Virus record (IMG/VR): IMGVR_UViG_3300045988_017048
Span: 1-64,000 of that record
Reading direction: 5' to 3' (one strand)
DNA length: 64,000 bases
Origin: a virus
Shown: positions 7,601 to 56,691 of the stretch, in pieces
How the letters are laid out: every line of letters starts with the position of its first letter
How positions within the stretch are numbered: the first letter of the stretch is position 1
Made by a program: the position numbers and the translations under genes
The notes under the pieces: model-generated
The model's input: only the letters and a program-made list of their open reading frames with translations
What the model was told of the DNA's origin: nothing
Database searches by the model: none

Positions 7601-10600
7601 TGAGTATTTGGGTTCATGAGAGGCTCATAGAACTCTCTACTATATGCAGGCATATAGCACTCAAGATACTTAATCCTCTTGTTAGCACCTTCACCTTCAA
7701 ATACTATATGAAGCTCATCAGTCAAGCCATAATCAGATACCTGAATTAAAGCTCCACCTCTAATCTTCTGTTTAGTAATTCTACTCTTGATTACACTATT
7801 AAGAAGTGTCTGTACTCTTTGAGATTGTACAGGGTCAAAGAGAGGGATATTAAAGTTATTGTTCTCATCAAGAGTACAGGCCCTCATCATATCCATACCA
7901 TATCTTTGATTACCTCTTATCTCTTCAAGTAAGATTTCCTCTACTTTCTTTGGGTCTTTGAATATCTCATCTACATCAGCAAATGCTTGAAGAATGTTCT
8001 CAGTGTTGATAGCATTGTACAGGTCAAGCCACTCTCTCTTAGTCATCTTCTTACCATTAACCTCAATGATTGTATCATCAGAGATGTCAGCAGTAATTAG
8101 CTTTCTAATCTGAGTACCTACCAACTGAACTGCATCAATGGCATGTTCAGGAGTTGCAGTCTGAATACCATAATCTTCATAAGATACCTTATGTACTACA
8201 TTAGGATTCTCATTACCAAATCCAATACCTGTGGCATCTTTAAGTCTTTGGATTACATCAGCCTCTGTATTAATATCATTCAAATCTATCACACCTTGTT
8301 TTCCAACCTTAGTGGTAGATTCAAACTGAACTACATCAATCTGATTATCCTCCATAAACTTATTTATGGCTTTCAATTTACCTGACCTTCCTAAAGGACC
8401 AGCAATTAATTCGTGCATAGCAAGTAACAGGAACTCTGAGTTCTTATGCTGTACAGGGGTCTTAATTCCAGTATGGCCTTCAATGCCACTGTTATTGTTG
8501 ACCTGTGTATAGACATAAGGCTTCTTAGTCTGCCAAATGATATTGAAGTCCTTAATATTCCAATCTCCATTCTTGAAGTTGTTATATGCTTGCTCCATAT
8601 CATCTGTCCACTGACCTGACATACCAAGTATTGCCCTATAGGAACTCAAACTTCTATATGCCTGAGCATCTGCTACATTCACATTTCTAAACTTGCTGAT
8701 GATGTTATCCCTGTCTATCTTGGTCATTTCATTTCTTCTAACCCTTTCATCAAGTACAGTCTTGATGTCTTCAAGTACAGAGGATATTATCTCATCATCT
8801 TTCAAGTAGATGGTTCTTTCCCAATCCCTACCAATTCTCTCACCTTTGTAAGTAGCCTTAGTATTCAGTCTAAGGGCAGGAGCATGAACCTCCTTATATC
8901 TCTTCTGAAAGTCCTCAAGGTTCTTATAGAAAGCAAGGTCAGTAGTAGTAAGCTGGATAATTTGTGAAGTAGCTAACTTACTATTCCAATAGTACTCTCT
9001 AAGTGCATCCTTAGCATTATTCTTAACAAACAGGCTTCTTGAGATTGACTGAACATCTTTCAACTCCATCTCACCTCTTGTTGCCTTATCTGTAAGTAAT
9101 GCCTTGATTTGCTCCATTAAGCTATTAGCCTCTCTGTTATCAAAAGCACTATTATTGTTATAGGCTCTGAGCATTAGTTCCATATTGGTATTCCACAATG
9201 AACCTAAGGCATCTTTGGCCTTAGTAAGTGCTTTTGCAGTTATTGTATTCTGCTTGGACTGACCTTCAAATGGAAGATACTTGTATTTACCATTAGGAAG
9301 CTCATCCAAAAGTCCTACCCTTGACCAATCTCTGTAGGTCTGTTCAAAACCATCTTCCATCATGTCATTAAGGGCAGTTCTTAGGAAGTTCCTAAGTTCA
9401 GCACCAGTACCTTTGGATTTAAGTCTGCTTAGTCTATCAATGAATGTCTCTCCATTGTCATATCTGAGGTTGTTAAGTGCAGGAAGGAACTTAAATTCTG
9501 CACCTCCCATACTCTTTATATTACCATTCTTATCCCTGGCAATATCATAGTTAGCAATAGGCTCTACACCCTTATCTCCTCTCTGATAAGCTTCATCTCT
9601 TTCTCTAACCAGCATAATTCTGTCATACTCTTGATTAACCAAGTCCACTAACTTGTCAAGGATAACATCATCATAGGTTCTCTTCTTACCATTTTCATCA
9701 AGTACATCACCTGTTGTATACTTTCTGAATCTAATAAACTCAGCAGAAGGGCTATCTGAAAGAATAGGAACATGATACCAAGCATACTTTATACTTGACT
9801 TTGCAGAGTCAGGGTCTCCCCAATACTCTGTAAGAAGAGCTAAAGTATAGTCCAAATCATCCCAATTGGTATAGTCTACTTTGTCAGAGTTCAATACTAC
9901 TTTATGGTTAAGACCTTTTCTTAACTCATCAGACTCTGCAAGCTGTCTTAGCCAGTCATTTCTCCAATGGTCACTCTTAAAGAACCACTCATACTGTTTA
10001 AACTCAGTCTGCATAAACTGTTCAAATCTCTTCTTGTCATTCATAACATTCTTGAGATTCTTAATCAGCTTACCTAAGTAGTTAGGAGTAACATGAGAAT
10101 AGTAAGACTTATCATTCTCTCTGACACTACTTTCAATAGCATCCTCAGTAACTTCTGCCATCATACTTGCAATCATATTGTAAGCAGAGCCAAAAGTATT
10201 GATAAGGTCTCCTCTCTTTTCAGTGCCATCCTCCTTTGTCTCAGACTTAACTTCACCTTTCTTAATACCACTGAATATAATATTCAATTGTGGTAAAAGA
10301 AGCATGATTGGGTCAGTAAATGTGATACCTGGAGCTGTCTTTATATCAGTTAATGCAGTTTTCAATATAGAAGGATTGGCATCAATACCTAACATATGAA
10401 GCAACTTCATTATAGTATTCCATACATCTTCTCTCTCCAAGAGTTGAAGTCTGGATTCTGTATCAAGGTTCTGGAACATATTATTTAATGTTTCAGTCCA
10501 TTGTAAACCTTTAGCCGCATTATCCTTGTTTATTTCCCCATTCTTCTCATATACACTATCATCATCAAGCTGTACTCCATTCTCATAGTTATCTCTCCAA

Positions 10601-39758: not shown

Positions 39759-40075
39759 ATCTTTCTTGAAAAGAATTTATCCTTGAATCTCCAATATGTG
39801 TACCAAGTACCATAATAGTAACTATCAGGGTCTGAGTAGTGCTTTAACCATATAACCCAAAATACAATGACCTCTGCTATATTAACAAATGGTATAATAC
39901 TAGTAATCAGCATGATAAGTGCTATCCACAATGGAATACCTATCTTTTTAGCTTTTTCCCAGTCAAAGTCCCACTTATTATTACCTTCTGACATGATTGT
40001 AATTGTATAAGTGTGCTTTAGTACATATATCTGGATTATGAAGGACACTAAACCAATTATAGTTAGATTTGCCAT
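39755..40075 (-). CDS. Small membrane protein (2-3 TM), holin-like candidate
   Basis: Hydrophobic segments IIGLVSFIIQIYVL, IPLWIALIMLITSIIPFV, VIVFWVIWL; adjacent to the lysin. Confidence 0.45.
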   Translation of the reverse strand: MANLTIIGLVSFIIQIYVLKHTYTITIMSEGNNKWDFDWEKAKKIGIPLWIALIMLITSIIPFVNIAEVIVFWVIWLKHYSDPDSYYYGTWYTYWRFKDKFFSRKI

Positions 40076-40599
40076 TAGATGTTGAGTTTATTGTTAATAT
40101 CAGAAGACTTAGGAAAGAGTTTCTTTCTTTCAATATCAGCTACTTCAATAGCTTCATTAAGAGTTTTATATCTTCCAAATGAGATACCATTTATTCTTAC
40201 CCTATACTTCCCATCTTCTAATGTAACATTTCTATGTTTAGTATTAGAATTTAATAGAGTAGAGATATTCTGAGCATTTTCTGTAGGAGTTACCTCCCTG
40301 AGATTGCTCTTTCTATTGTTCAAGGTATTATGGTCTATATGGTCAATAACATTGTTAGGATTACTTTTGCTCATAATAACATTGTGAATCCAGTACTGCT
40401 TTCTCACCTTATCAATCTGAACTTTCGTCTTAACCCCATCAATGTGTCCTGTCCTATTTCTATTAATATGCCATGTACTCTTGAATTGTGACACCCTCAT
40501 TAAGTCCTCTCTGTCTATATAACAAATTAAGTCCCTTTCTTTATAGTTTATGACTATACCTAAGGTGTCATCATCAATCTCTACTACTCTATTTTTCAT
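40075..40599 (-). CDS. Free-standing HNH endonuclease with AP2-like DNA-binding domain
   Basis: VIDHIDHNTLNNRKSNLREVTPTENAQN (HNH_3-type) followed by KYRVRINGISFGRYKTLNEAIE (AP2-like). Confidence 0.75.
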   Translation of the reverse strand: MKNRVVEIDDDTLGIVINYKERDLICYIDREDLMRVSQFKSTWHINRNRTGHIDGVKTKVQIDKVRKQYWIHNVIMSKSNPNNVIDHIDHNTLNNRKSNLREVTPTENAQNISTLLNSNTKHRNVTLEDGKYRVRINGISFGRYKTLNEAIEVADIERKKLFPKSSDINNKLNI

Positions 40600-41405
40600 T
40601 ATTTACCTCCCATTTTACTTACATCTAAAAACACTCCACTATTACCCCCTGAAACTACAGTTGGAATTTCTCCATTCCACTTCTCAATCCACTGCTGCTT
40701 GAGAATCAATGGAGTCAAAGCCTGTGTTCTAAGCTTATTAGCCTCTGCTTCAGCCTGTGCTGCAACTACCTTCTTCTCTGCCTCTGCCTTAACTACAGCA
40801 AGCTCATTCTGAGCCTTCTGAGCCTTTTGTATAGCAGCATTTTTGGCATTAACTGCATCTACAATAGACTGAGGATATTTCAATCCTGAAGTTAGCTGTT
40901 CCAACTGAAAATTTTCCTTGAGCAATGCCTTGGACAAATGTGCTTCAATAGCTTTCTCTACCATATCTCTGTTTGATACAATCTCATCAGTAGTATACTT
41001 ATTGAGCTGAATCCTAAAGGCATCCTTTACATAGTTAAAGAGAGTTCCATTGATAACATCAGCAAGCTCCTTCCTATACTTCTTGAATACCTGAGGTGAC
41101 TTGCCATCAGCAATCTTCAATGAAATAGTAGGGTCAATACTGAACTCTGAACCATCCTTTGCATTAATTGTGAAAGCAGGATAATCTACTGTCTGGACAT
41201 AAGTAGGATACTCATAAACCTGCTCAGTGAATGGATTATACCACACTGCACCAGTAACCAAAGATACATCATCTACACCCTTTTCAGAGCCATAGAGGTT
41301 TACCTTAATACCCTCACAACCTGCATCCACTCTCTCATAACCACATGAGGACATACCCAACATGGTAAACAATGCCATAAGGCACATAATTACTTTACTT
41401 TTCAT
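40599..41405 (-). CDS. SPFH/band-7 (prohibitin-like) lipoprotein
   Basis: Lipobox LGMSSC; Ala/Glu/Lys-rich coiled-coil tail AQKAQNELAVVKAEAEKKVVAAQAEAEANK is typical of SPFH proteins. Confidence 0.6.
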   Translation of the reverse strand: MKSKVIMCLMALFTMLGMSSCGYERVDAGCEGIKVNLYGSEKGVDDVSLVTGAVWYNPFTEQVYEYPTYVQTVDYPAFTINAKDGSEFSIDPTISLKIADGKSPQVFKKYRKELADVINGTLFNYVKDAFRIQLNKYTTDEIVSNRDMVEKAIEAHLSKALLKENFQLEQLTSGLKYPQSIVDAVNAKNAAIQKAQKAQNELAVVKAEAEKKVVAAQAEAEANKLRTQALTPLILKQQWIEKWNGEIPTVVSGGNSGVFLDVSKMGGK

Positions 41406-42002: not shown

Positions 42003-42563
42003 TTATTCATCCTCTTTTGGTTCAGGACAACATACTACATACCTAAATCTTGAACAAATTCCTTTCCATTTTTTATAGTCCATACATGAGTTCTTTTTCA
42101 GCGATTTTTCATCAATGAAGTTACTTACACAAAGCATATCATACTTCTCAGTAGGATGATGAATTATCCCAAAGTACCTATCCAGTTCCTGTATAACTGC
42201 TTCAATAGTTTCACCTGATGATATAAAGTCATCCACAACTATAAACCTTGTAGCACCAACCTCATCAATTCCTCTCAATGAAGAACAATGAGCACCATCT
42301 TCCTTCTTCCTGACAATCAAGATATAGGTTCTAATAGTTGGATTAATGTTATGTAGCTCATTAAGCATAGCACCTGCAATCATGGCTCCTGATGTGCCTC
42401 TTGCTACAAAAGTAATGCTTGTACCTTTCTCAATGTCTTCTTTATATGTATTGAAGATTGCTTCTGCACATTGTTGTATATAACTATGCCTCCAATAAAC
42501 ACCAAATGGATATTCTACGCTAATAAAATGGTCAAGATGTATAAATTTAGGAATATATCCCAT
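42003..42563 (-). CDS. Phosphoribosyltransferase (PRTase) family protein
   Basis: PRPP-binding motif FIVVDDFISSGETI. Confidence 0.65.
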   Translation of the reverse strand: MGYIPKFIHLDHFISVEYPFGVYWRHSYIQQCAEAIFNTYKEDIEKGTSITFVARGTSGAMIAGAMLNELHNINPTIRTYILIVRKKEDGAHCSSLRGIDEVGATRFIVVDDFISSGETIEAVIQELDRYFGIIHHPTEKYDMLCVSNFIDEKSLKKNSCMDYKKWKGICSRFRYVVCCPEPKEDE

Positions 42564-43496: not shown

Positions 43497-43565
43497 GTGT
43501 ATCTTAAGACTCGAACCTAACCTCTAACCCAACAGTTAGTGTGCTACCAATTACACCAAGATACA
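43497..43565 (-). tRNA. tRNA-like gene with aberrant anticodon arm (possible pseudo-tRNA)
   Basis: Acceptor TGTATCT/AGATACA (7 bp), D arm GTGT-aattggta-GCAC, T arm TAGG-TTCGAGT-CTTA. The anticodon stem CTAAC/GTTAG encloses only 6 nt (TGTTGG); opened by one pair it is 8 nt. Total 69 nt. Confidence 0.4.
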
Positions 43566-44738: not shown

Positions 44739-45134
44739 TTATTCGTGTAAATGTTTTAAGTAATTCTTATCTAAGTCAGGATGTTTGTGTATTAAGAATC
44801 TGCAACTTATACACACTATCAGGTGAGCTACACCTTCTGCTGCTATAATTCCTATTACAATATCCTGCCACTTAGGAAGTGAATCCCAGCTTGTCAAGAA
44901 GAGTACAAGAATGAGCATGGTTATCCAAAAAGTACTGCAATAGATGCAGAATCCCAATGGATATGCTATAAAATGTAAGAACCTATTGCCACTTTTAACC
45001 ATAGGTATAAACACTTTACTGTACAAAGGATAGAATATCATATCCTCAACCTTCAGGCAATTCCTATAGAATATGCCTAATAGTCCACCTATTACTCCCA
45101 ATAGCATGAACTCAAACATTAATACATAAAACAT
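44739..45134 (-). CDS. Integral membrane protein (131 aa, about 4 TM)
   Basis: Multiple hydrophobic segments. Confidence 0.6.
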   Translation of the reverse strand: MFYVLMFEFMLLGVIGGLLGIFYRNCLKVEDMIFYPLYSKVFIPMVKSGNRFLHFIAYPLGFCIYCSTFWITMLILVLFLTSWDSLPKWQDIVIGIIAAEGVAHLIVCISCRFLIHKHPDLDKNYLKHLHE

Positions 45135-45167
45135 ACTTTTTTTTTAGTTAATACTAAGATTGTTTTG

Positions 45168-45548
45168 TGGAGCATAGGGGAGTCGAACCCCTGTCTTACC
45201 AATCTTTAATAAAAGAATTACACATGCTTACTACTTTTTAATGTGGTTAGTTACCCACTGGGCTGACTGGATTTACAGCATTTCCACCACCTTATTTTAT
45301 TGTCCATAAACAAGGAAAAAGTTGAGTTACCTTCTGTGAGACCACAGCCTATTAATGCTCTTAAAGTCGGACCCTCAGCCTTAGTCTTCATTCAGGCTTT
45401 GCACCTTTCTGTTTCCAAGTAAGTGCTACTCAGCCTATTTAGGCAGCAACTCTATAAGAAGTATTGCCAGTTATTGTTTTGATGTCTTTCCATCAGTCTT
45501 TGCATGTTCTCTTACCAAATAATTAGCAATCAAAACCAAAAATGCCCC
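45168..45548 (-). ncRNA. ssrA: tmRNA (transfer-messenger RNA)
   Basis: 5' GGGGCAU pairs with 3' AUGCUCC, including a G3:U70 pair, with discriminator A. T arm AGGGG-UUCGACU-CCCCU. UAAGCAUGU box near the 3' domain. Internal tag frame GGC AAU ACU UCU UAU AGA GUU GCU GCC UAA (45468-45439), giving (A)GNTSYRVAA. 381 nt. Confidence 0.8.
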
Positions 45549-45766
45549 TAATAAATGGATTCATTTTCTATTGAAAGAATGTCCTAACAAAGTCAAATAT
45601 TGTTTCTTCTTGAAACATCATTATTAAAGTCACTTAGCTTCCTCTTTATATCCCCACATTGAAGCAGTTGCATTTATTAAGTGGTGATAGCTTACCTATC
45701 AGCATCACATTTTGCTTTTCTTCAGGTTCCATGCTTAGTAGAAATAGTGAGCTAAATCCACCATTG

Positions 45767-45838
45767 TATCTCCACTGAGACTCGAACTCAGATATATAGT
45801 TTAGAAGACTATTGTTCTATCCCTTGAACTATGGAGAC
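45767..45838 (-). tRNA. tRNA-Arg (anticodon TCT)
   Basis: Acceptor GTCTCCA/TGGAGAT; anticodon arm ATAGT-CTTCTAA-ACTAT; T arm CTGAG-TTCGAGT-CTCAG. Confidence 0.8.
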
Positions 45839-45956
45839 ATTATAAAAGAAGACCTATATTCACATACCAGCCTCCTGTAGCAATATTACTATTGCCTGAA
45901 CTAAAAATCCTTTGCTTAAAAACAATCAAATTGCCTTATATGAGTAAATACCTTAG

Positions 45957-46030
45957 TACTCCCTATTGGGCTTGAACCAATGACCTATGGTTTAGGAAAC
46001 CATTGCTCTATCCAACTGAGCTAAGGGAGC
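45957..46030 (-). tRNA. tRNA-Arg (anticodon CCT)
   Basis: Acceptor GCTCCCT/AGGGAGT; D arm GCTC-AGTTGGATA-GAGC; anticodon arm ATGGT-TTCCTAA-ACCAT; T arm ATTGG-TTCAAGC-CCAAT. Confidence 0.8.
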
Positions 46031-49977: not shown

Positions 49978-50006
49978 TTGATTGTTTGTTTATGGATTGA
50001 TAAAAG

Positions 50007-50081
50007 GGAGATATGATAGACTCGAACTATCATTATAACTGCAATTATTGAGTTATGTACTAACCATTGTACTAATATCTC
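50007..50081 (-). tRNA. tRNA-like gene with a 10-nt anticodon loop (isotype undetermined)
   Basis: Otherwise canonical cloverleaf: acceptor GAGATAT/ATATCTC, D arm GTAC-aatggtta-GTAC, T arm GATAG-TTCGAGT-CTATC. The anticodon stem TAACT/AGTTA encloses CAATAATTGC (10 nt). Confidence 0.45.
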
Positions 50082-52271: not shown

Positions 52272-52344
52272 TGCCTCATAGTATAGTTGGTTATTACACG
52301 GGATTTTGGCTCCTGTAACATAAGTTCGAGTCTTATTGGGGTAA
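52272..52344 (+). tRNA. tRNA-Gln (TTG)
   Basis: Acceptor TGCCTCA/TGGGGTA; anticodon arm CGGGA-TTTTGGC-TCCTG; T arm ATAAG-TTCGAGT-CTTAT. Confidence 0.8.
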
Positions 52345-52361
52345 CAATAATAAAGGTAAAT

Positions 52362-52433
52362 ACCCTCTTAGTTCAATGGATAGAATAAGAGACTTCTAAT
52401 CTTTTGATATAGGTTCGATTCCTATAGGGGGTA
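52362..52433 (+). tRNA. tRNA-Arg (TCT)
   Basis: Acceptor ACCCTCT/AGGGGGT; anticodon arm AGAGA-CTTCTAA-TCTTT; T arm ATAGG-TTCGATT-CCTAT. Confidence 0.8.
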
Positions 52434-52439
52434 CTAAAT

Positions 52440-52513
52440 GTTGGGTTAGACGAAGTGGTGAAGTCATCACACTTTCAATGTGAAGATTATGGGTTCGAGT
52501 CCCATACCCAATA
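52440..52513 (+). tRNA. tRNA-Glu (TTC)
   Basis: Acceptor GTTGGGT/ACCCAAT; anticodon arm TCACA-CTTTCAA-TGTGA; T arm ATGGG-TTCGAGT-CCCAT. Confidence 0.8.
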
Positions 52514-52519
52514 CAATAT

Positions 52520-52591
52520 AGAGCTATCTACTAATGGACAGGTAACTGCCCTCTCAAGGCAGAAATTTGGGTTCAATTCCCAATAGCTCTA
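52520..52591 (+). tRNA. tRNA-Glu (CTC)
   Basis: Acceptor AGAGCTA/TAGCTCT; D arm TACT-aatggaca-GGTA; anticodon arm CTGCC-CTCTCAA-GGCAG; T arm TTGGG-TTCAATT-CCCAA. Confidence 0.75.
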
Positions 52592-52597
52592 CAATTT

Positions 52598-52670
52598 AGG
52601 GTGTGTAGCATAGTGGTTAATGTGCCTGACTGTCAATTAGGAGATTGGAGTTCAATTCTCCCACATCCTG
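52598..52670 (+). tRNA. tRNA-Asp (GTC)
   Basis: Acceptor AGGGTGT/ACATCCT; anticodon arm CCTGA-CTGTCAA-TTAGG; T arm GGAG-TTCAATT-CTCC. Confidence 0.8.
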
Positions 52671-52696
52671 CTAATCCACCTTTAATCTACTGAAGT

Positions 52697-52720
52697 CCTA
52701 TCCTACAGAGGTAGGATAGG
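52697..52720 (+). other. Perfect 10-bp hairpin between tRNA genes
   Basis: CCTATCCTAC-agag-GTAGGATAGG; the arm CCTATCCTAC also occurs at 50600-50609. Confidence 0.6.
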
Positions 52721-52725
52721 CAAAT

Positions 52726-52810
52726 GGAGAGGTAACTCAGTGGGACTGGGACTTGTCTTGAAAACAATGGGAGCAGTAAAATGCTTGGGGGTCAGGACCT
52801 CACCTCTCCG
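52726..52810 (+). tRNA. tRNA-Ser (TGA), type II
   Basis: Acceptor GGAGAGG/CCTCTCC, discriminator G; anticodon loop CTTGAAA; long variable arm; T loop atypical (GTCAGGA). Confidence 0.65.
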
Positions 52811-52849
52811 CAATAATGGTGTTCTTTGACATGTTGGTGAGGAAAGTAT

Positions 52850-52935
52850 GGAGAGTAAACTATCAAGGTGATAGTCCTATCTGCTAAATAGTGAGTACCC
52901 TAATAAGGTATTTGTTTCGAGTACAATGCTCTCCG
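52850..52935 (+). tRNA. tRNA-Ser (GCT), type II
   Basis: Acceptor GGAGAGT/GCTCTCC, discriminator G; anticodon loop CTGCTAA; long variable arm GTACC..GGTAT; T loop TTCGAGT. Confidence 0.7.
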
Positions 52936-52941
52936 CAATAT

Positions 52942-53014
52942 ATGGGTGTAATTCAGTAGGTAGAATGCTGGCTTTGGGAGCCAGTTGTCCTTGGTTCGAG
53001 TCCAAGTACCCATA
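52942..53014 (+). tRNA. tRNA-Pro (TGG)
   Basis: Acceptor ATGGGTG/TACCCAT; anticodon arm CTGGC-TTTGGGA-GCCAG; T arm CTTGG-TTCGAGT-CCAAG. Confidence 0.8.
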
Positions 53015-53019
53015 CTAAT

Positions 53020-53093
53020 GGGCTTTGTAGTGTAATCAGGTTAGCACAAGACATTTGCAATGTTTTAGAGGAGTTCAAATCTCACAAGGTCCA
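53020..53093 (+). tRNA. tRNA-Ala (TGC)
   Basis: Acceptor GGGCTTT/AAGGTCC with G3:U70; anticodon arm AGACA-TTTGCAA-TGTTT; T stem weak (3 bp). Confidence 0.65.
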
Positions 53094-53177
53094 CTATGCT
53101 TTCATGTTTTCATAATGTTGAGCTTTTGCTTGAACCCTCTTTTGGGTAGTTAGAGGTTAAAGAAATTACCCTATCAA

Positions 53178-53251
53178 TGCTCTTTAGTTCAGTGGTTTAG
53201 AATAGTTCCCTTACAAGGAAAAGGTCATTAGTTCGATTCTAATAGGAGCAA
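53178..53251 (+). tRNA. tRNA-Val (TAC)
   Basis: Acceptor TGCTCTT/AGGAGCA; anticodon loop CTTACAA; T arm ATTAG-TTCGATT-CTAAT. Confidence 0.8.
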
Positions 53252-53258
53252 CATAAAT

Positions 53259-53330
53259 GGGTCTTTAGTTCAAAGGTCAGAACAAGGGGCTGTTAACCCT
53301 TAGATGTAAGTTCGAGTCTTACAGGTCCCG
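53259..53330 (+). tRNA. tRNA-Asn (GTT)
   Basis: Acceptor GGGTCTT/AGGTCCC (one mismatch); anticodon arm AGGGG-CTGTTAA-CCCTT; T arm GTAAG-TTCGAGT-CTTAC. Confidence 0.75.
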
Positions 53331-53439
53331 CAAAAACTTTTGCAAGAAGTTTAGTCAAGTAGCTTGCAATACTTGATGCCATCATTTCTGAAAAGTCTCT
53401 GAGTGCAATAAGGAGGAGTAATCAATGATTTGATGCTTT

Positions 53440-53512
53440 AGCAGGTTAGAGAAGTAGTAATCTTGCCCCACCCATAATGGGGAGACCAGTGGTGCAAATC
53501 CACTACCTGCAA
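53440..53512 (+). tRNA. tRNA with CAT anticodon (Met or Ile2-type)
   Basis: Acceptor AGCAGGT/ACCTGCA with a 1:72 A/A mismatch; anticodon arm CCCCA-CCCATAA-TGGGG (C rather than U at position 33); T arm AGTGG-TGCAAAT-CCACT. Confidence 0.6.
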
Positions 53513-53520
53513 CTATAAAT

Positions 53521-53592
53521 TGGTACTTAGTTTAATGGTAAAACCTCAGACTCCAAATCTGAAAGATGAGTGTTCGAGTCATTCAGTACCTG
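53521..53592 (+). tRNA. tRNA-Trp (CCA)
   Basis: Acceptor TGGTACT/AGTACCT (1:72 mismatch); anticodon arm TCAGA-CTCCAAA-TCTGA; T arm GAGTG-TTCGAGT-CATTC. Confidence 0.75.
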
Positions 53593-53598
53593 CTATAT

Positions 53599-53670
53599 TG
53601 GCATATCTTCTAATGGTCAGGAAGCTACTCTGATAAGGTAGTAATCAAGGTTCAATTCCTTGTATGCCAA
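53599..53670 (+). tRNA. tRNA-Ile (GAT)
   Basis: Acceptor TGGCATA/TATGCCA; anticodon arm CTACT-CTGATAA-GGTAG; T arm CAAGG-TTCAATT-CCTTG. Confidence 0.8.
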
Positions 53671-53672
53671 CT

Positions 53673-54092
53673 ATGATTAGAAAATATTTAAGTAGTAGAG
53701 GCAAGAGAATAGTTCTTATCTGTAAACATTGTGGCAAGGAATTTGAAACCTTGCAACTAAAGGCTAATGCAGGTAGAGAAAAGTTCTGTAGTAGGGAATG
53801 TTATAACCAATACAGGAAGGAATGCTGTACCAGCATAAAAGAAAGGAACATTTTATATCAGAAAAAGTCTAAATATGGTTTGACAGAAGAGGAATATAAG
53901 GGTCTATTTGATGCACAAGGTAATAGATGTTCTATATGTGGGACTTCTTTTGAAGTTACTAAAGCTTTTGTAGACCATGACCATAAAACAGGAAGGGTAA
54001 GAGGATTGCTATGTTCTCAATGCAATACATTACTTGGGATGGCTAAGGATAATACTGAGGTATTAGAAGCTGCTATTCAATACCAGAAATAG
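53673..54092 (+). CDS. Endonuclease VII-type HNH homing endonuclease inside the tRNA array
   Basis: GNRCSICG...VDHDHKTGRVRGLLCSQCNTLLG (endo VII/HNH signature); the track start at 53664 lies inside tRNA-Ile, so the ATG at 53673 is preferred; the last base of the stop TAG is the first base of the next tRNA. Confidence 0.7.
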   Translation: MIRKYLSSRGKRIVLICKHCGKEFETLQLKANAGREKFCSRECYNQYRKECCTSIKERNILYQKKSKYGLTEEEYKGLFDAQGNRCSICGTSFEVTKAFVDHDHKTGRVRGLLCSQCNTLLGMAKDNTEVLEAAIQYQK

Positions 54093-54163
54093 CTGATGTA
54101 CTTCAATGGTAGAAGACTGCTCTCATAAGGCAGTAGTTGAAAGTTCGAGTCTTTCTATCAGCA
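54092..54163 (+). tRNA. tRNA-Met (CAT)
   Basis: Acceptor GCTGATG/TATCAGC; anticodon arm CTGCT-CTCATAA-GGCAG; T arm GAAAG-TTCGAGT-CTTTC. Confidence 0.8.
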
Positions 54164-54165
54164 CT

Positions 54166-54239
54166 GTGTTAGTAGCTCAGTCAGGTAGAGCAAAGGATTG
54201 TGGCTCCTTATGGCATGGGTTCAAATCCCATCTAACACC
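54166..54239 (+). tRNA. tRNA-His (GTG)
   Basis: Acceptor GTGTTAG/CTAACAC, discriminator C; D arm GCTC-agtcaggta-GAGC; anticodon arm AAGGA-TTGTGGC-TCCTT; T arm ATGGG-TTCAAAT-CCCAT. Confidence 0.8.
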
Positions 54240-54246
54240 CCAATAT

Positions 54247-54323
54247 ACTAGCATATCCCCTCTGTCTTATACACAGTAGAAAGGGTAATAGGTCACATGT
54301 GGGTTCAATCCCCTCTGCTAGTA
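54247..54323 (+). tRNA. Atypical tRNA-like gene, possible anticodon TAT (Ile, AUA)
   Basis: Perfect acceptor ACTAGCA/TGCTAGT and T arm GTGGG-TTCAATC-CCCTC. The only 7-nt-loop hairpin is (T)CTGT-CTTATAC-ACAG(T). No D arm could be folded, and 21 nt lie between the anticodon arm and the T arm. Confidence 0.35.
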
Positions 54324-54327
54324 CTAT

Positions 54328-54401
54328 CTTGGAGTACCAGAGTGGCTAATGGCACAGACTGCAAATCTGATGATTCGTGGGTTCAAATCCCACCTCCAAG
54401 T
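54328..54401 (+). tRNA. tRNA-Cys (GCA)
   Basis: Acceptor CTTGGAG/CTCCAAG, discriminator T; anticodon arm CAGA-CTGCAAA-TCTG; T arm GTGGG-TTCAAAT-CCCAC. Confidence 0.8.
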
Positions 54402-54403
54402 CT

Positions 54404-54655
54404 ATGTGTTATATAGATAAACTTATAAAGAACAATACAGGAGTTTCTTCAAAGAACTTCTTCTTAGTGGCAGTTACCTTAATAGGTTTAATCCTACTAT
54501 TAGTTCCTGCTGTACTTCTTATAATAGAAGTATATTATAATCATACTATACAGACAGACCTTAATGGTCTTGCTGCTTATATAGGTGCTGTTGCTGGAGT
54601 ATTTGCATCAGCAGGTATTACTAAAGCATGGTCTGAAAAGTATGAAAAGAAATAA
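54404..54655 (+). CDS. Small membrane protein (83 aa, 2 TM)
   Basis: The track ORF starts (GTG) inside tRNA-Cys, so the ATG at 54404 is preferred; hydrophobic segments FFLVAVTLIGLILLLVPAVLLII and LAAYIGAVAGVFASAGI. Confidence 0.55.
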   Translation: MCYIDKLIKNNTGVSSKNFFLVAVTLIGLILLLVPAVLLIIEVYYNHTIQTDLNGLAAYIGAVAGVFASAGITKAWSEKYEKK

Positions 54656-54656
54656 T

Positions 54657-54730
54657 GCTCCTATAGCTGAATTGGTTAAAGCAACAGTCTCTTAAACTGT
54701 GGATTCAAGGTTCAAGTCCTTGTGGGGGCA
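54657..54730 (+). tRNA. tRNA-Lys (CTT)
   Basis: Acceptor GCTCCTA/TGGGGGC; anticodon arm ACAGT-CTCTTAA-ACTGT; T arm CAAGG-TTCAAGT-CCTTG. Confidence 0.8.
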
Positions 54731-54751
54731 CAACCCAACCTTGGCAAATAT

Positions 54752-54824
54752 TCCCCCAAAGCATTGATGGTGGATGCTCTGGACTTTTAATCCTGAAAGT
54801 AAGGTTCGATTCCTTATGGGGGAA
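54752..54824 (+). tRNA. tRNA-Lys (TTT)
   Basis: Acceptor TCCCCCA/TGGGGGA; anticodon loop CTTTTAA; T arm TAAGG-TTCGATT-CCTTA. Confidence 0.8.
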
Positions 54825-54858
54825 CATAACATATTATTAACTCCAAATTTTTATTGTT

Positions 54859-54966
54859 ATGAAGAAAGTTATTTCATTAATTAAGAGAGGTGCTAAGGCA
54901 TACTTTAGACAATCTGCTAAGACTTATGCTTGGGCACCTACAGGAACTATTCCAGTTGGAATATAG
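54859..54966 (+). CDS. Possible 35-aa basic peptide
   Basis: Hand-translated MKKVISLIKRGAKAYFRQSAKTYAWAPTGTIPVGI; the only ORF in a 180-nt tRNA-free gap; weak support. Confidence 0.25.
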   Translation: MKKVISLIKRGAKAYFRQSAKTYAWAPTGTIPVGI

Positions 54967-55002
54967 TTCCTTTGATGCTGGAGTGAGTAATAAATATTAT
55001 AT

Positions 55003-55085
55003 GGGGTAGCTTTAATGTGGTGAATTAGTGTGGACTGTAAATCCACTGCCTCAGGCTATTTAAGGTTCGATTCCTTTCTGCCCCA
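55003..55085 (+). tRNA. tRNA-Tyr (GTA), type II
   Basis: Acceptor GGGGTAG/CTGCCCC; anticodon arm GTGGA-CTGTAAA-TCCAC; long variable arm; T loop TTCGATT. Confidence 0.8.
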
Positions 55086-55153
55086 CTTCAATAGAAATCT
55101 TTGTCCTTGACTTATGGAAAGTGATGTGGGTAGAGACACAAATAAGTCATTAT

Positions 55154-55228
55154 GGGTGTTGGGCAGGTATGGTTACATTGCGTAGGTCTGAAAAACCTAA
55201 GAATAAAGTTCGATTCTTTGAACACCCA
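55154..55228 (+). tRNA. tRNA-Phe (GAA)
   Basis: Acceptor GGGTGTT/AACACCC; anticodon arm TAGGT-CTGAAAA-ACCTA; T arm AAAG-TTCGATT-CTTT. Confidence 0.8.
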
Positions 55229-55234
55229 CTATAT

Positions 55235-55319
55235 ACTCCTGTGGTGGAACTGGTAGACACACTTGCCTCAAAAGCAAGAGCTTGAAAAAAGAGTAAGAGT
55301 TCAAGTCTCTTCAGGAGTA
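55235..55319 (+). tRNA. tRNA-Leu (CAA), type II
   Basis: Acceptor ACTCCTG/CAGGAGT; anticodon arm CTTGC-CTCAAAA-GCAAG; long variable arm; T arm AAGAG-TTCAAGT-CTCTT. Confidence 0.8.
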
Positions 55320-55327
55320 CTTATAAT

Positions 55328-55416
55328 GCCCTCTTGGTGGAATTTGGTAGACACATCTGCCTTAGAAGCAGACATGAAGTAATAGTAGTGTAAGAGTTCA
55401 AGTCTCTTAGAGGGTA
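55328..55416 (+). tRNA. tRNA-Leu (TAG), type II
   Basis: Acceptor GCCCTCT/AGAGGGT; anticodon arm TCTGC-CTTAGAA-GCAGA; long variable arm; T arm AAGAG-TTCAAGT-CTCTT. Confidence 0.8.
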
Positions 55417-55418
55417 CT

Positions 55419-55739
55419 ATGAAAGAGATTAATATTAAATATAGTGAGTACATTATTAATGTGCTTTTAAGTACCAATAATACTTCTATAACAGACTCTT
55501 ATAGGATAAGGAGAGTAAAAGACATGGTTAATGTCTTAAAGAAGATAAGAAACACATGTGATAATTCTTATGCTATACACAAGAGAAGTATATTTGGTAT
55601 GGTTAATGAATGGAGAGTACATAATCTATTATACTTTTTACATATAAAAAGGAGAAGGACAGGTACAGTAGATTTAAATATAAATCAGAGTATATGGGCA
55701 AAAATAGCTTATACATTGCTCTCTGTATTTTATTTTTAA
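55419..55739 (+). CDS. Hypothetical protein (106 aa)
   Basis: ATG lies 2 nt after tRNA-Leu; hydrophobic C-terminus. Confidence 0.55.
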   Translation: MKEINIKYSEYIINVLLSTNNTSITDSYRIRRVKDMVNVLKKIRNTCDNSYAIHKRSIFGMVNEWRVHNLLYFLHIKRRRTGTVDLNINQSIWAKIAYTLLSVFYF

Positions 55740-55767
55740 AGAATAAAAAAAATAAATAGTATTTTAC

Positions 55768-55798
55768 TTGCATATTTCAATTAAAATACTTATCTTTG
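55768..55798 (+). promoter_or_regulatory. Bacteroidetes-type promoter for the Dps-like gene
   Basis: TTGCAT-N17-TATCTTTG; the -7 box ends 20 nt before the ATG at 55819. Confidence 0.65.
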
Positions 55799-55818
55799 CA
55801 CCATCAAAATAAGAGAAT

Positions 55819-56265
55819 ATGTTTGAAGAAGATAACCTATTTACTCCAATGGAATCAAGTAGAAGTACTGAAGTATCTGGCTCTCAGTTCTTTATTAACT
55901 TCTTAAACCAGCTTGAAGGTTGGAAGACCAAGTGTAAGAACTTGCATTGGGCAGCACCTAAGAAGAATATCCATGTATATCTTGATGAATTTCTTGATAT
56001 ATTGTCAGACTATCAAGATGGTCTTGCAGAAGGATATATGGGAATACTTGGTAAGATGCAACCTAATGTAATCAAAGGAACTCCAAGTGATGCACTGAAT
56101 GCTTTTGACTTTATAAGTGAAGTTAAGTCTGCTACTACTGCATTTTATGATAAGATTCCTCAAGAGACTATTTATAAAGGTATAGCATCTGAATGTGAGA
56201 CCTTTATTCAGAATATCAATAAGTATGACTTCTTATTCCACTTATGTGATATAAGACCTTATTGA
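55819..56265 (+). CDS. Dps/ferritin-like four-helix-bundle protein (putative)
   Basis: KCKNLHWAAPKKNIHVYLDEFLD resembles the Dps helix-A/B region (K-N-x-H-W ... H-x-x-x-[DE]-E). Confidence 0.4.
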   Translation: MFEEDNLFTPMESSRSTEVSGSQFFINFLNQLEGWKTKCKNLHWAAPKKNIHVYLDEFLDILSDYQDGLAEGYMGILGKMQPNVIKGTPSDALNAFDFISEVKSATTAFYDKIPQETIYKGIASECETFIQNINKYDFLFHLCDIRPY

Positions 56266-56273
56266 CAAGAGAT

Positions 56274-56359
56274 GCTCTCATGGTGGAATTGGTAGACACG
56301 AGGGACTTAAAATCCCTTGGCCAGAAATGGTTGTCTGGGTTCAACTCCCAGTGGGAGTA
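56274..56359 (+). tRNA. tRNA-Leu (TAA), type II
   Basis: Acceptor GCTCTCA/TGGGAGT; anticodon arm AGGGA-CTTAAAA-TCCCT; long variable arm; T arm CTGGG-TTCAACT-CCCAG. Confidence 0.8.
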
Positions 56360-56365
56360 CCATTT

Positions 56366-56439
56366 GCCTCCTTAGTGTTAATGGTTTAGCAAGCCTGTCT
56401 TGTAAACAGGAAGAGAGGGTTCAAATCCTTCAGGAGGCT
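56366..56439 (+). tRNA. tRNA-Thr (TGT)
   Basis: Acceptor GCCTCCT/AGGAGGC; anticodon arm CCTGT-CTTGTAA-ACAGG; T arm GAGGG-TTCAAAT-CCTTC. Confidence 0.8.
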
Positions 56440-56445
56440 CAAAGT

Positions 56446-56518
56446 GTAGGTATGGTGTTAGTGGTTAGCATATGACATTGCCAATGTCAAGGGGTCAGTT
56501 CAAATCTGATTATCTACT
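56446..56518 (+). tRNA. tRNA-Gly (GCC)
   Basis: Acceptor GTAGGTA/TATCTAC; anticodon arm TGACA-TTGCCAA-TGTCA; T arm GTCAG-TTCAAAT-CTGAT. Confidence 0.8.
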
Positions 56519-56523
56519 CAAAT

Positions 56524-56595
56524 GCAGGTATAGTATAAAGGTTAGTATGTAACACTTCCAATGTTAATGTGTGGGTTCGATTCCCACTATCTGCT
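56524..56595 (+). tRNA. tRNA-Gly (TCC)
   Basis: Acceptor GCAGGTA/TATCTGC; anticodon arm TAACA-CTTCCAA-TGTTA; T arm GTGGG-TTCGATT-CCCAC. Confidence 0.8.
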
Positions 56596-56604
56596 CAGAT
56601 ATAT

Positions 56605-56677
56605 CATGGGGTGATAGCAATGGTAGCTAGCAAGGCTCATAACCTTGAGGTTGGAGGTTCGAGTCCTCCCCCCGTAA
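56605..56677 (+). tRNA. Initiator-type tRNA-fMet (CAT)
   Basis: Acceptor CATGGGG/CCCCGTA with a C1xA72 mismatch, as in bacterial initiators; anticodon arm CAAGG-CTCATAA-CCTTG; T arm GGAGG-TTCGAGT-CCTCC; overall similar to E. coli tRNA-fMet as recalled. Confidence 0.75.
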
Positions 56678-56691
56678 CTAAATTACTTTAT

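Follow-up and report, generated by a model that had tools for sequence, protein, structure and literature searches.

A stretch of 64,000 nucleotides (nt) of viral DNA (IMG/VR record IMGVR_UViG_3300045988_017048, positions 1-64,000; hereafter the window) raised the question of whether a phage carries its own transfer-messenger RNA (tmRNA) gene and, if so, what this gene does during infection. Such an RNA, similar to the product of bacterial ssrA and bearing a divergent degradation tag, had been predicted from the sequence alone on the minus strand at positions 45168-45548. The gene at this locus is an intact, phage-encoded, ssrA-like tmRNA in the standard one-piece form, 381 nt long up to the discriminator A. 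It is likely to be functional, acting in trans-translation in an infected Bacteroides-type host with the help of host factors.

The gene was identified by two detectors independent of each other, and both the covariation across its family and the phage setting of the locus agreed with them. ARAGORN called a single tmRNA in the whole window (45167-45548, minus strand, tag peptide GNTSYRVAA followed by a stop), and the Rfam tmRNA model RF00023 matched 45165-45548 on the same strand over its full length (model positions 1-374) with 76.1 bits (E 9.1e-28; gathering score 47 bits). Both of the detectors recommended in the original prediction therefore found a tmRNA where one had been proposed. By megablast and blastn, the window phage was crAss-like (Crassvirales) with relatives in the Steigviridae/Asinivirinae, the related records being bajarodcaudo virus 1, IAS virus, Kehishuvirus tikkala, cr106_1, cr128_1 and crAss001. 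Genes for helicases, a primase, a Sak4-like protein, a DNA polymerase and NrdD were located on the minus strand, and the plus strand carried a large tRNA array followed by terminase. As had been noted, the tmRNA lies downstream of two tRNA-Arg genes on the same strand (UCU, 45766-45838; CCU, 45956-46030; ARAGORN and Rfam); the three genes stand at the head of the minus-strand replication module and probably form one transcription unit.

The gene is one of a family. Homologues were found by blastn, with the 384-nt gene as query, in three GenBank phage genomes (cr106_1, Kehishuvirus tikkala and cr128_1), and scanning of IMG/VR with two exact patterns, taken from the 5' and the 3' part of the gene, added 55 and 8 further loci, respectively; a survey of relatives, which the original prediction had recommended, thus recovered about 63 IMG/VR phage contigs from more than 10 metagenome datasets. 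In 53 of 59 family loci, at least one of the two tRNA-Arg genes was present no more than 680 nt upstream, and the family is therefore one orthologous locus. Copies fell into length classes of about 302, 316, 381, 388 and 445 nt; the classes are set apart by the part of the body that lies between helix 5 and the 3' pseudoknot region. Forty-seven unique copies were aligned after in silico removal of introns, and the consensus fold obtained with RNAalifold recovered the acceptor, a helix 2 of 26 base pairs, a hairpin at the site of the first pseudoknot (PK1), helix 5, a hairpin after helix 5, two helices in the region of the fourth pseudoknot (PK4) and the T arm. Standard pairs were found in 99.8 % of the cells of this fold, compared with 42-47 % when the partners were slid by 1-3 columns, and 11 pairs had changed on both sides, compared with 2-4 in the slid controls and with none of 500 shuffles reaching 11. 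The RNA structure is under continuing purifying selection across the 47 unique copies.

The tRNA-like domain was complete. Direct reading of the minus strand agreed with the predicted acceptor stem, in which the 5' strand GGGGCAU (45542-45548, G3 at 45546) pairs with the 3' strand AUGCUCC (45175-45169), including G3:U70 and followed by the discriminator A (45168); CCA is not encoded, and CAA comes after the discriminator. All 7 acceptor pairs, G3:U70 among them, were invariant in 47 of 47 unique copies. Two copies beyond this alignment (L182 and L188) had acceptor pairs 6 and 7 swapped (GGGGCUA/UAGCUCC) with G3:U70 retained, and their outer helix 2 was likewise compensated. The canonical T arm, AGGGG-UUCGACU-CCCCU (45192-45176, T loop 45181-45187), was also as predicted; four of the five pairs of its stem had changed on both sides (in 17, 21, 1 and 1 sequences), giving the variants AGGGG/CCCCU, AAGGG/CCCUU, GAGGG/CCCUC, UUGGG/CCCAA and UCCAG/CUGGA. 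Helix 2 joined the 5' strand UGCUAAUU.UUUGGUAAGAGA.ACAUGC (45502-45528) to a 3' strand at 45197-45227 (RNAalifold and RF00023), and in the 47 sequences its 26 pairs were 100 % paired; a change had occurred on one side in 9 cases and on both sides in 1. The UAAGCAUGU box that had been placed in the 3' domain (45230-45222) was located as described; it forms the 3' side of the conserved CAUGC/GCAUG segment of helix 2, and the helix takes in most of the box (45222-45227).

The mRNA-like domain (45439-45473, minus strand) comprised a U at -5 and an A at -4 of the resume codon (45473 and 45472), the resume codon GGC (45468-45466), the tag (A)GNTSYRVAA (45468-45442) and the stop codon UAA (45441-45439). 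Sequence and ARAGORN agreed on the mini open reading frame (ORF) first proposed, which reads GGC AAU ACU UCU UAU AGA GUU GCU GCC UAA at 45468-45439 with AUCAAAACAAUAACU just upstream. For the Arg codon of this frame, AGA, the decoding tRNA is the tRNA-Arg(UCU) whose gene lies shortly upstream of the tmRNA. Eighteen tag alleles were collected across the family, every one in the ARAGORN frame, including GNTSYRVAA, DNTYRVAA, GNTYRAAA, DNTSYRVAA, GNTSYKVAA, DNTYKVAA, GTSYKMAA, GTSYRIAA, GNSYRVVA, GNTSYRAAA and the long form AKSYRMTPALMAA. The changes between them included synonymous ones (AAT/AAC, GCT/GCA/GCC, TCT/TCC), a stop-to-stop exchange (TAA/TGA) and indels of exactly one codon; the conserved residues were the Tyr, a basic one (R/K), a hydrophobic one (V/A/M/I) and the final Ala. 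The U at -5 and the A at -4, whose E. coli equivalents U85/A86 set the tag frame, were invariant across the family. Because the synonymous changes, the one-codon indels and the conserved residues fit a translated frame, this pattern argues that the tag is translated and disfavors a pure decoy role. An alternative frame, GCA AUA CUU ..., was rejected, as the synonymous changes and one-codon indels fit the ARAGORN frame only and U-5/A-4 point to GGC.

The body of the RNA was partly resolved. At the usual PK1 site, RNAalifold placed a hairpin, GAUG-GAAAGA-CAUC (45481-45494), in which one pair (columns 58:69) was A:U in 43 sequences and U:A in 4. An H-type PK1 was rejected, since inspection of the PK1 position found no second stem, only this hairpin; the PK1 region is about 14 nt shorter than in Bacteroides ssrA. 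Helix 5 (45428-45447, RNAalifold), which contains the end of the tag and the stop codon, was paired in about 99 % of cells, with one-sided changes only. The first body hairpin after it, GCACUU/AGGUGC (45401-45426), was supported by covariation (columns 131:157, G:C in 38 sequences and U:A in 7) and is probably stem 1 of PK2. The GGAAAC motif of its loop and a downstream UUUC(C) were kept in all size classes despite the 30-176 nt that separate them, and it is plausible that the loop pairs with this conserved UUUC(C), 5' of the next hairpin (45290-45315), as a candidate PK2 pairing to which covariation does not contribute. The intervening segment of about 80 nt (45319-45400), defined from the alignments, contains local helices GCCU/AGGC (45378-45397) and CUGUG/CACAG (45334-45347) and is missing from the 302-nt forms of the cr106_1 type. 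Directly 5' of a GUGGUGG element, the hairpin CCUUGUUU/AAAUAAGG (45290-45315) showed strong compensation between classes (CUUGCAU/AUGCAAG, CUCUAUU/AAUAGAG, UCUGCAU/AUGCAGA and CCUUAUUUC/GAAAUAAGG). The PK4-like region (45243-45291; RNAalifold and covariation) consisted of UGG/CCA around a hairpin CUG(U)/CAG, then GUGG/CCAC; one of its pairs (columns 437:448) was G:C in 37 sequences and A:U in 10, and the inner hairpin covaried as CUGU/ACAG, GUUGA/UCAAC, GUCAA/UUGAC and AUUGU/ACAAU. Both this inner hairpin and that at 45290-45315 were out of register in the MAFFT alignment and covaried clearly when read sequence by sequence. The pseudoknot architecture expected of the fold (PK1-PK4) was thus recovered only in part: the support 3' of helix 5 is for four covarying helices and a candidate loop pairing for PK2, not for a whole pseudoknot, and the PK1 position holds a simple hairpin.

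Two observations concern how the body may have changed in length. The window tmRNA contains three occurrences of the motif UAGGCUGAG or AGGCUG (45319-45447), one in helix 5 and two in the class-specific segment of about 80 nt, and in one contig (L017, 4370-4755) the helix 5/PK2 module appears duplicated, the tag being lengthened to AKSYRMTPALMAA and followed by three stop codons. The size classes may have arisen by internal duplication.

The gene, its conserved structure, its conserved reading frame and its residence in phage genomes were observed directly; the way in which such an RNA would work can be laid out from its elements. Transcription from the minus strand would probably cover the two tRNA-Arg genes upstream as well as the tmRNA, at the head of the replication module; host tRNA-processing enzymes would trim the RNA, and the host CCA-adding enzyme would provide CCA. 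Host alanyl-tRNA synthetase would charge it with alanine through G3:U70 and the discriminator A, and host SmpB and EF-Tu would deliver it to ribosomes stalled on broken or stop-less mRNAs. Translation would resume at GGC (45468), a position set by U-5/A-4, the tag (A)GNTSYRVAA would be added, and synthesis would end at the UAA inside helix 5. The ribosome would be freed and the hydrophobic-Ala-Ala C-terminus would mark the product for host proteases. The benefit for the phage would be extra ribosome-rescue capacity during infection.

The dependence on the host follows from what the phage DNA lacks. The original prediction had seen no smpB gene in the window, and searches with E. coli SmpB bore this out: tblastn, and phmmer against stop-to-stop segments in all six frames, gave only noise for SmpB-like coding in the window (best E 0.37-1.2), with a query validated against PDB whose sensitivity in Bacteroidota rests on SmpB conservation. 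Because no smpB was found in the window and CCA is not encoded, we infer that host SmpB, alanyl-tRNA synthetase, EF-Tu, RNase P and CCA-adding enzyme must be used. A candidate for a divergent SmpB-like partner was sought in the immediate neighborhood. Blastn synteny defined an indel cassette of about 1 kb (44744-45761, minus strand) made up of the tmRNA, a 217-nt spacer with no ORF and no known RNA, and a hydrophobic ORF of 131 amino acids (44739-45134). This ORF was rejected as an SmpB-like partner: it is strongly hydrophobic and membrane-like, matched nothing in Pfam or PHROG, and had homologues in 36 of 71 family loci, at variable distance from the tmRNA.

Several points weigh against a functional tmRNA working in this way. 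Expression, charging, use of SmpB, proteolysis and the benefit to the phage are steps that we infer, and the scheme depends on compatibility with host SmpB despite an identity of only 40-50 % between the phage and host tmRNAs. The covariation structure was derived from the alignment on which it was tested and the family was collected by exact conserved patterns, both of which favor conserved copies. PK2-PK4 were only partly resolved and PK1 is reduced to a hairpin; reduced pseudoknots occur in genuine tmRNAs. The gene is also accessory and dispensable. The whole cassette is missing from bajarodcaudo virus 1 (L191, 7673-7678), the closest sequenced relative, in which the flanking genes are collinear (blastn). 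In the cultured phage Kehishuvirus tikkala (OQ198717; L002, 4001-4305) the gene is intact up to the T loop, where it passes into a sequence identical to the 3' end of a phage tRNA gene; in related genomes (L007 and L011) this tRNA gene is located about 3.9 kb further downstream. Judging from this junction, the tikkala copy is a dead chimera made by a T-loop-to-T-loop deletion, with T stem and acceptor destroyed. In one contig (L037; IMGVR_UViG_3300008272_000065, 9457-9550) an internal deletion has left about 91 nt, namely the tRNA-like domain only, with the acceptor, part of helix 2 and the T arm but without a tag frame, scoring 47.3 bits with Rfam, at the threshold; being known from a single contig, this reduced form could be an assembly artefact.

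The alternative that survives best is that the phage tmRNA modulates rather than helps: it would compete with the host tmRNA for SmpB and stalled ribosomes and, through its own tag, alter the fate of the products. The native Bacteroides SsrA tag, named in the original prediction as GETNYALAA, is indeed given as such in the literature, where it drives very strong degradation, and the full tag was present in 101 of 105 ARAGORN-called Bacteroidota ssrA genes, these loci having been retrieved with that same tag pattern. GNTSYRVAA shares with it G, T, Y and the terminal AA and differs at 4 of 9 positions, with a basic residue instead of Ala at -4, Val instead of Leu at -3, and no Glu at position 2. 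The phage tag does therefore differ from that of the host, as had been claimed, but the divergence is only moderate, five of nine residues and the length being common to both. All 18 alleles have R or K at -4 and none has the host Glu, so that an end reading Y-R/K-V-A-A in place of Y-A-L-A-A, with no acidic position 2, might be read more slowly, faster, or by another protease or adaptor. A phage tmRNA without a coding sequence, that of DS6A, is on record as interfering with the host tmRNA, and the L037 form, with its tRNA-like domain only, is comparable. On the other side, the defining marks of an ordinary proteolysis tag, the Tyr and a C-terminus of hydrophobic-Ala-Ala, are both retained, and the differences of the phage tag may be neutral drift within the tolerance of the proteases. 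A related possibility is that the added rescue capacity counters host abortive-infection toxins that cleave mRNA. Taken jointly, it is rather unlikely that the phage tmRNA reroutes or retimes the destruction of tagged proteins, or that it serves as an anti-defense function against host systems that cut mRNA or tRNA and stall ribosomes; the ideas first put forward for the gene, an altered fate of tagged proteins and the replacement of a damaged host tmRNA, are speculation.

It is still less likely that the gene is a decaying passenger, an ssrA captured once, no longer contributing and now being lost. The patchy distribution would fit this explanation, since the gene is missing from bajarodcaudo virus 1 and blastn found no homologue in crAss001 or IAS virus, as would the dead copies (the tikkala chimera and the internally deleted L037) and the RF00023 scores of the family, 60-76 bits as against 100-109 for host genes. 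However, every element is intact in the window copy, and the compensatory and synonymous tag changes over the 47 unique copies speak for continuing purifying selection. A further argument comes from copies split by a group I intron (869-871 nt; RF00028, 86-88 bits) in the T loop, which were found in cr128_1 (L003; MT774392, 4001-5330) and in five IMG/VR contigs (L013, L035, L040, L049 and L058). The intron sits after T-loop nucleotide 2 (…GAGGGUU, then the intron, then CGAAUCCCUC AUGCUCCA), with U at -1 and omega G, and the exons would splice into a perfect T arm. Because these exons stay spliceable, they argue that the mature RNA is needed.

The phage introns form two lineages, 74 % identical to each other, and the only Pfam match of their antisense ORF was to a zinc-finger family. 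Group I introns have been described at four subsites of the tmRNA T loop, those at “position 3” all being from the class Bacteroidia (PMC11915505); by our own reading of the numbering used there, the phage introns occupy this “position 3” subsite. Blastn detected no host counterpart of the phage intron in 120 Bacteroidota ssrA loci, and Rfam found no group I intron in 13 host loci examined among those not called by ARAGORN, of which six had a tmRNA match and were mostly cut at a contig end. In the window copy the T arm is continuous, and Rfam found no RF00028 match in the window.

The origin of the gene was addressed by comparison with Bacteroidota ssrA (120 loci retrieved with a degenerate GETNYALAA pattern, of which 105 were ARAGORN tmRNAs, mostly of 395 nt). 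The resemblance to the Bacteroidetes layout and upstream context, suggested from the start, was real: the window RNA and Bacteroides ssrA (about 395 nt) are both in one piece and share the G3:U70 acceptor, the T loop, the GCAUG element, the AUCAAAAC..UA.CUGGC context before a GGC resume codon, and a tag of nine residues with AA at its end; neither gene encodes CCA. They differ in that the PK1 region of the window copy is shorter and a hairpin only, and in that the window gene lies in a phage genome with no smpB found in the window. Identity between the window RNA and Bacteroidota ssrA was 40-50 %, while Bacteroides species are 90-97 % identical among themselves. The GC content of the window tmRNA (39 %) is close to that of the phage (36 %) and far from that of host ssrA (48.5 %), which points to a long stay in phage genomes; the probable ancestor is a Bacteroidota-type ssrA, from which the gene has long been evolving within phages. 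Given the low identity, the window gene is, on sequence comparison, neither a recent capture nor an assembly chimera nor an att fragment. Although, according to the literature, integration at tmRNA genes is common and ssrA fragments are frequent in prophages, host DNA, present as an assembly chimera or as the attP-type ssrA fragment of an integrating element, can practically be dismissed as an explanation, because the gene is full length and not a 3' fragment, it matches host ssrA exactly over no more than 15 nt, within the universal T arm, the same gene and phage context recur in many independent contigs and in complete phage genomes, and there was no integrase among the 28 window ORFs scanned.

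Other features of the surrounding DNA may be recorded here. A dense array of about 26 tRNA genes (52272-56678, plus strand) lies upstream of terminase; a second tRNA-Arg(UCU) of the window (52362-52434) falls within the region of the array, and a tRNA at 56366-56439, found by Rfam and missed by ARAGORN, has an anticodon loop that reads as tRNA-Thr(UGU). Two tRNA-like genes called by ARAGORN on the minus strand had abnormal anticodon loops, “taat” in an oversized loop at 50006-50081 and “tt” at 43497-43565; both were below the Rfam tRNA threshold and may be degenerate, intron-containing or unusual decoders. No suppressor tRNA was present among the 30 tRNA genes of the window, and long ORFs read through under code 11, so that a link between the tmRNA and stop-codon recoding was rejected. 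Downstream of the tmRNA region, the minus strand encodes an HNH endonuclease (40075-40599), an SPFH/Band 7 protein (40599-41405) and a phosphoribosyltransferase (42003-42563); the SPFH gene is also a conserved neighbor in cr128_1 and tikkala. A scan for sigma-70 promoters and terminators around the tmRNA gene gave 7 sites compared with 7.4 expected from shuffled sequence, Bacteroides and crAss promoters being outside the coverage of the scan.

The locus matters for several reasons. Few viruses of the human gut are more abundant than crAss-like phages, and some relatives that carry the gene family can be cultivated on Bacteroides. The role of any phage tmRNA in infection is still a hypothesis, and the family provides a natural experiment, with intact copies, a precise knock-out in a cultured phage (tikkala), a copy reduced to the tRNA-like domain and copies split by introns. 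Whether the phage RNA helps or modulates host rescue can be tested directly, as an assay for degradation of ssrA-tagged proteins in Bacteroides has been published (bioRxiv 10.1101/2025.03.18.644028). Should the tag or the added rescue capacity indeed be turned to the advantage of the phage, a crAss-like phage would be actively taking over ribosome quality control, and the tikkala knock-out and the intron-regulated version of cr128_1 would be test cases. The tmRNA gene is also missed or mis-annotated in several deposited crAss genomes: in the tikkala record two “hypothetical protein” coding sequences overlie the homologue, and in the cr128_1 record no feature is annotated there.

Phage-borne tmRNAs are well known as a class: one has been reported in each of 402 out of 18,146 phage genomes (2.3 %), and the tmRNA database, which includes RefSeq viruses among its sources, lists 79 unique phage sequences. 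No literature discussing tmRNA in crAss-like phages or Crassvirales was found, only citations of tools; the cr106_1 homologue is already annotated as “transfer-messenger RNA, SsrA” in GenBank and RefSeq, and the novelty of the gene was overrated in the original prediction. This homologue (Mahstovirus faecalis, MT774378/NC_055871, 29657-29960) is among the closest known counterparts: it was 91.6 % identical over the aligned 64 % of the query, scored 74.3 bits with Rfam, and shares with the window copy the tRNA-like domain, helix 2, the resume context and the position after tRNA-Arg. Its ARAGORN tag, DNTYRVAA, belongs to the same tag family but is one codon shorter and starts with Asp where the window tag starts with Gly; unlike the window copy, it is 302-304 nt long, lacks the body segment of about 80 nt and has a tRNA-Ile directly upstream. 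About 2.3 kb downstream of the cr106_1 tmRNA (L001, 6565-7986) there is a gene for a TROVE-domain (Ro60-like) protein, a type associated with RNA quality control.

Compared with other phage tmRNAs, the window copy is likewise a complete gene in a lytic-type, tRNA-rich phage genome, and the role in infection is hypothetical for those RNAs too. Huge phages often carry tmRNA together with SmpB, whereas none was found in this window. The OM43 phage Melnitz has a permuted, two-piece tmRNA gene with a riboswitch, in contrast to the standard form present here in a crAss-like Bacteroides phage of about 100 kb. Relative to the intron-form tmRNA genes (PMC11915505), the window copy has no intron and its relatives have a group I intron in the T loop. 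Finally, mycobacteriophage DS6A encodes a tmRNA without a coding sequence, to which the L037 form of about 91 nt is similar, while the window copy has a complete and conserved tag frame.

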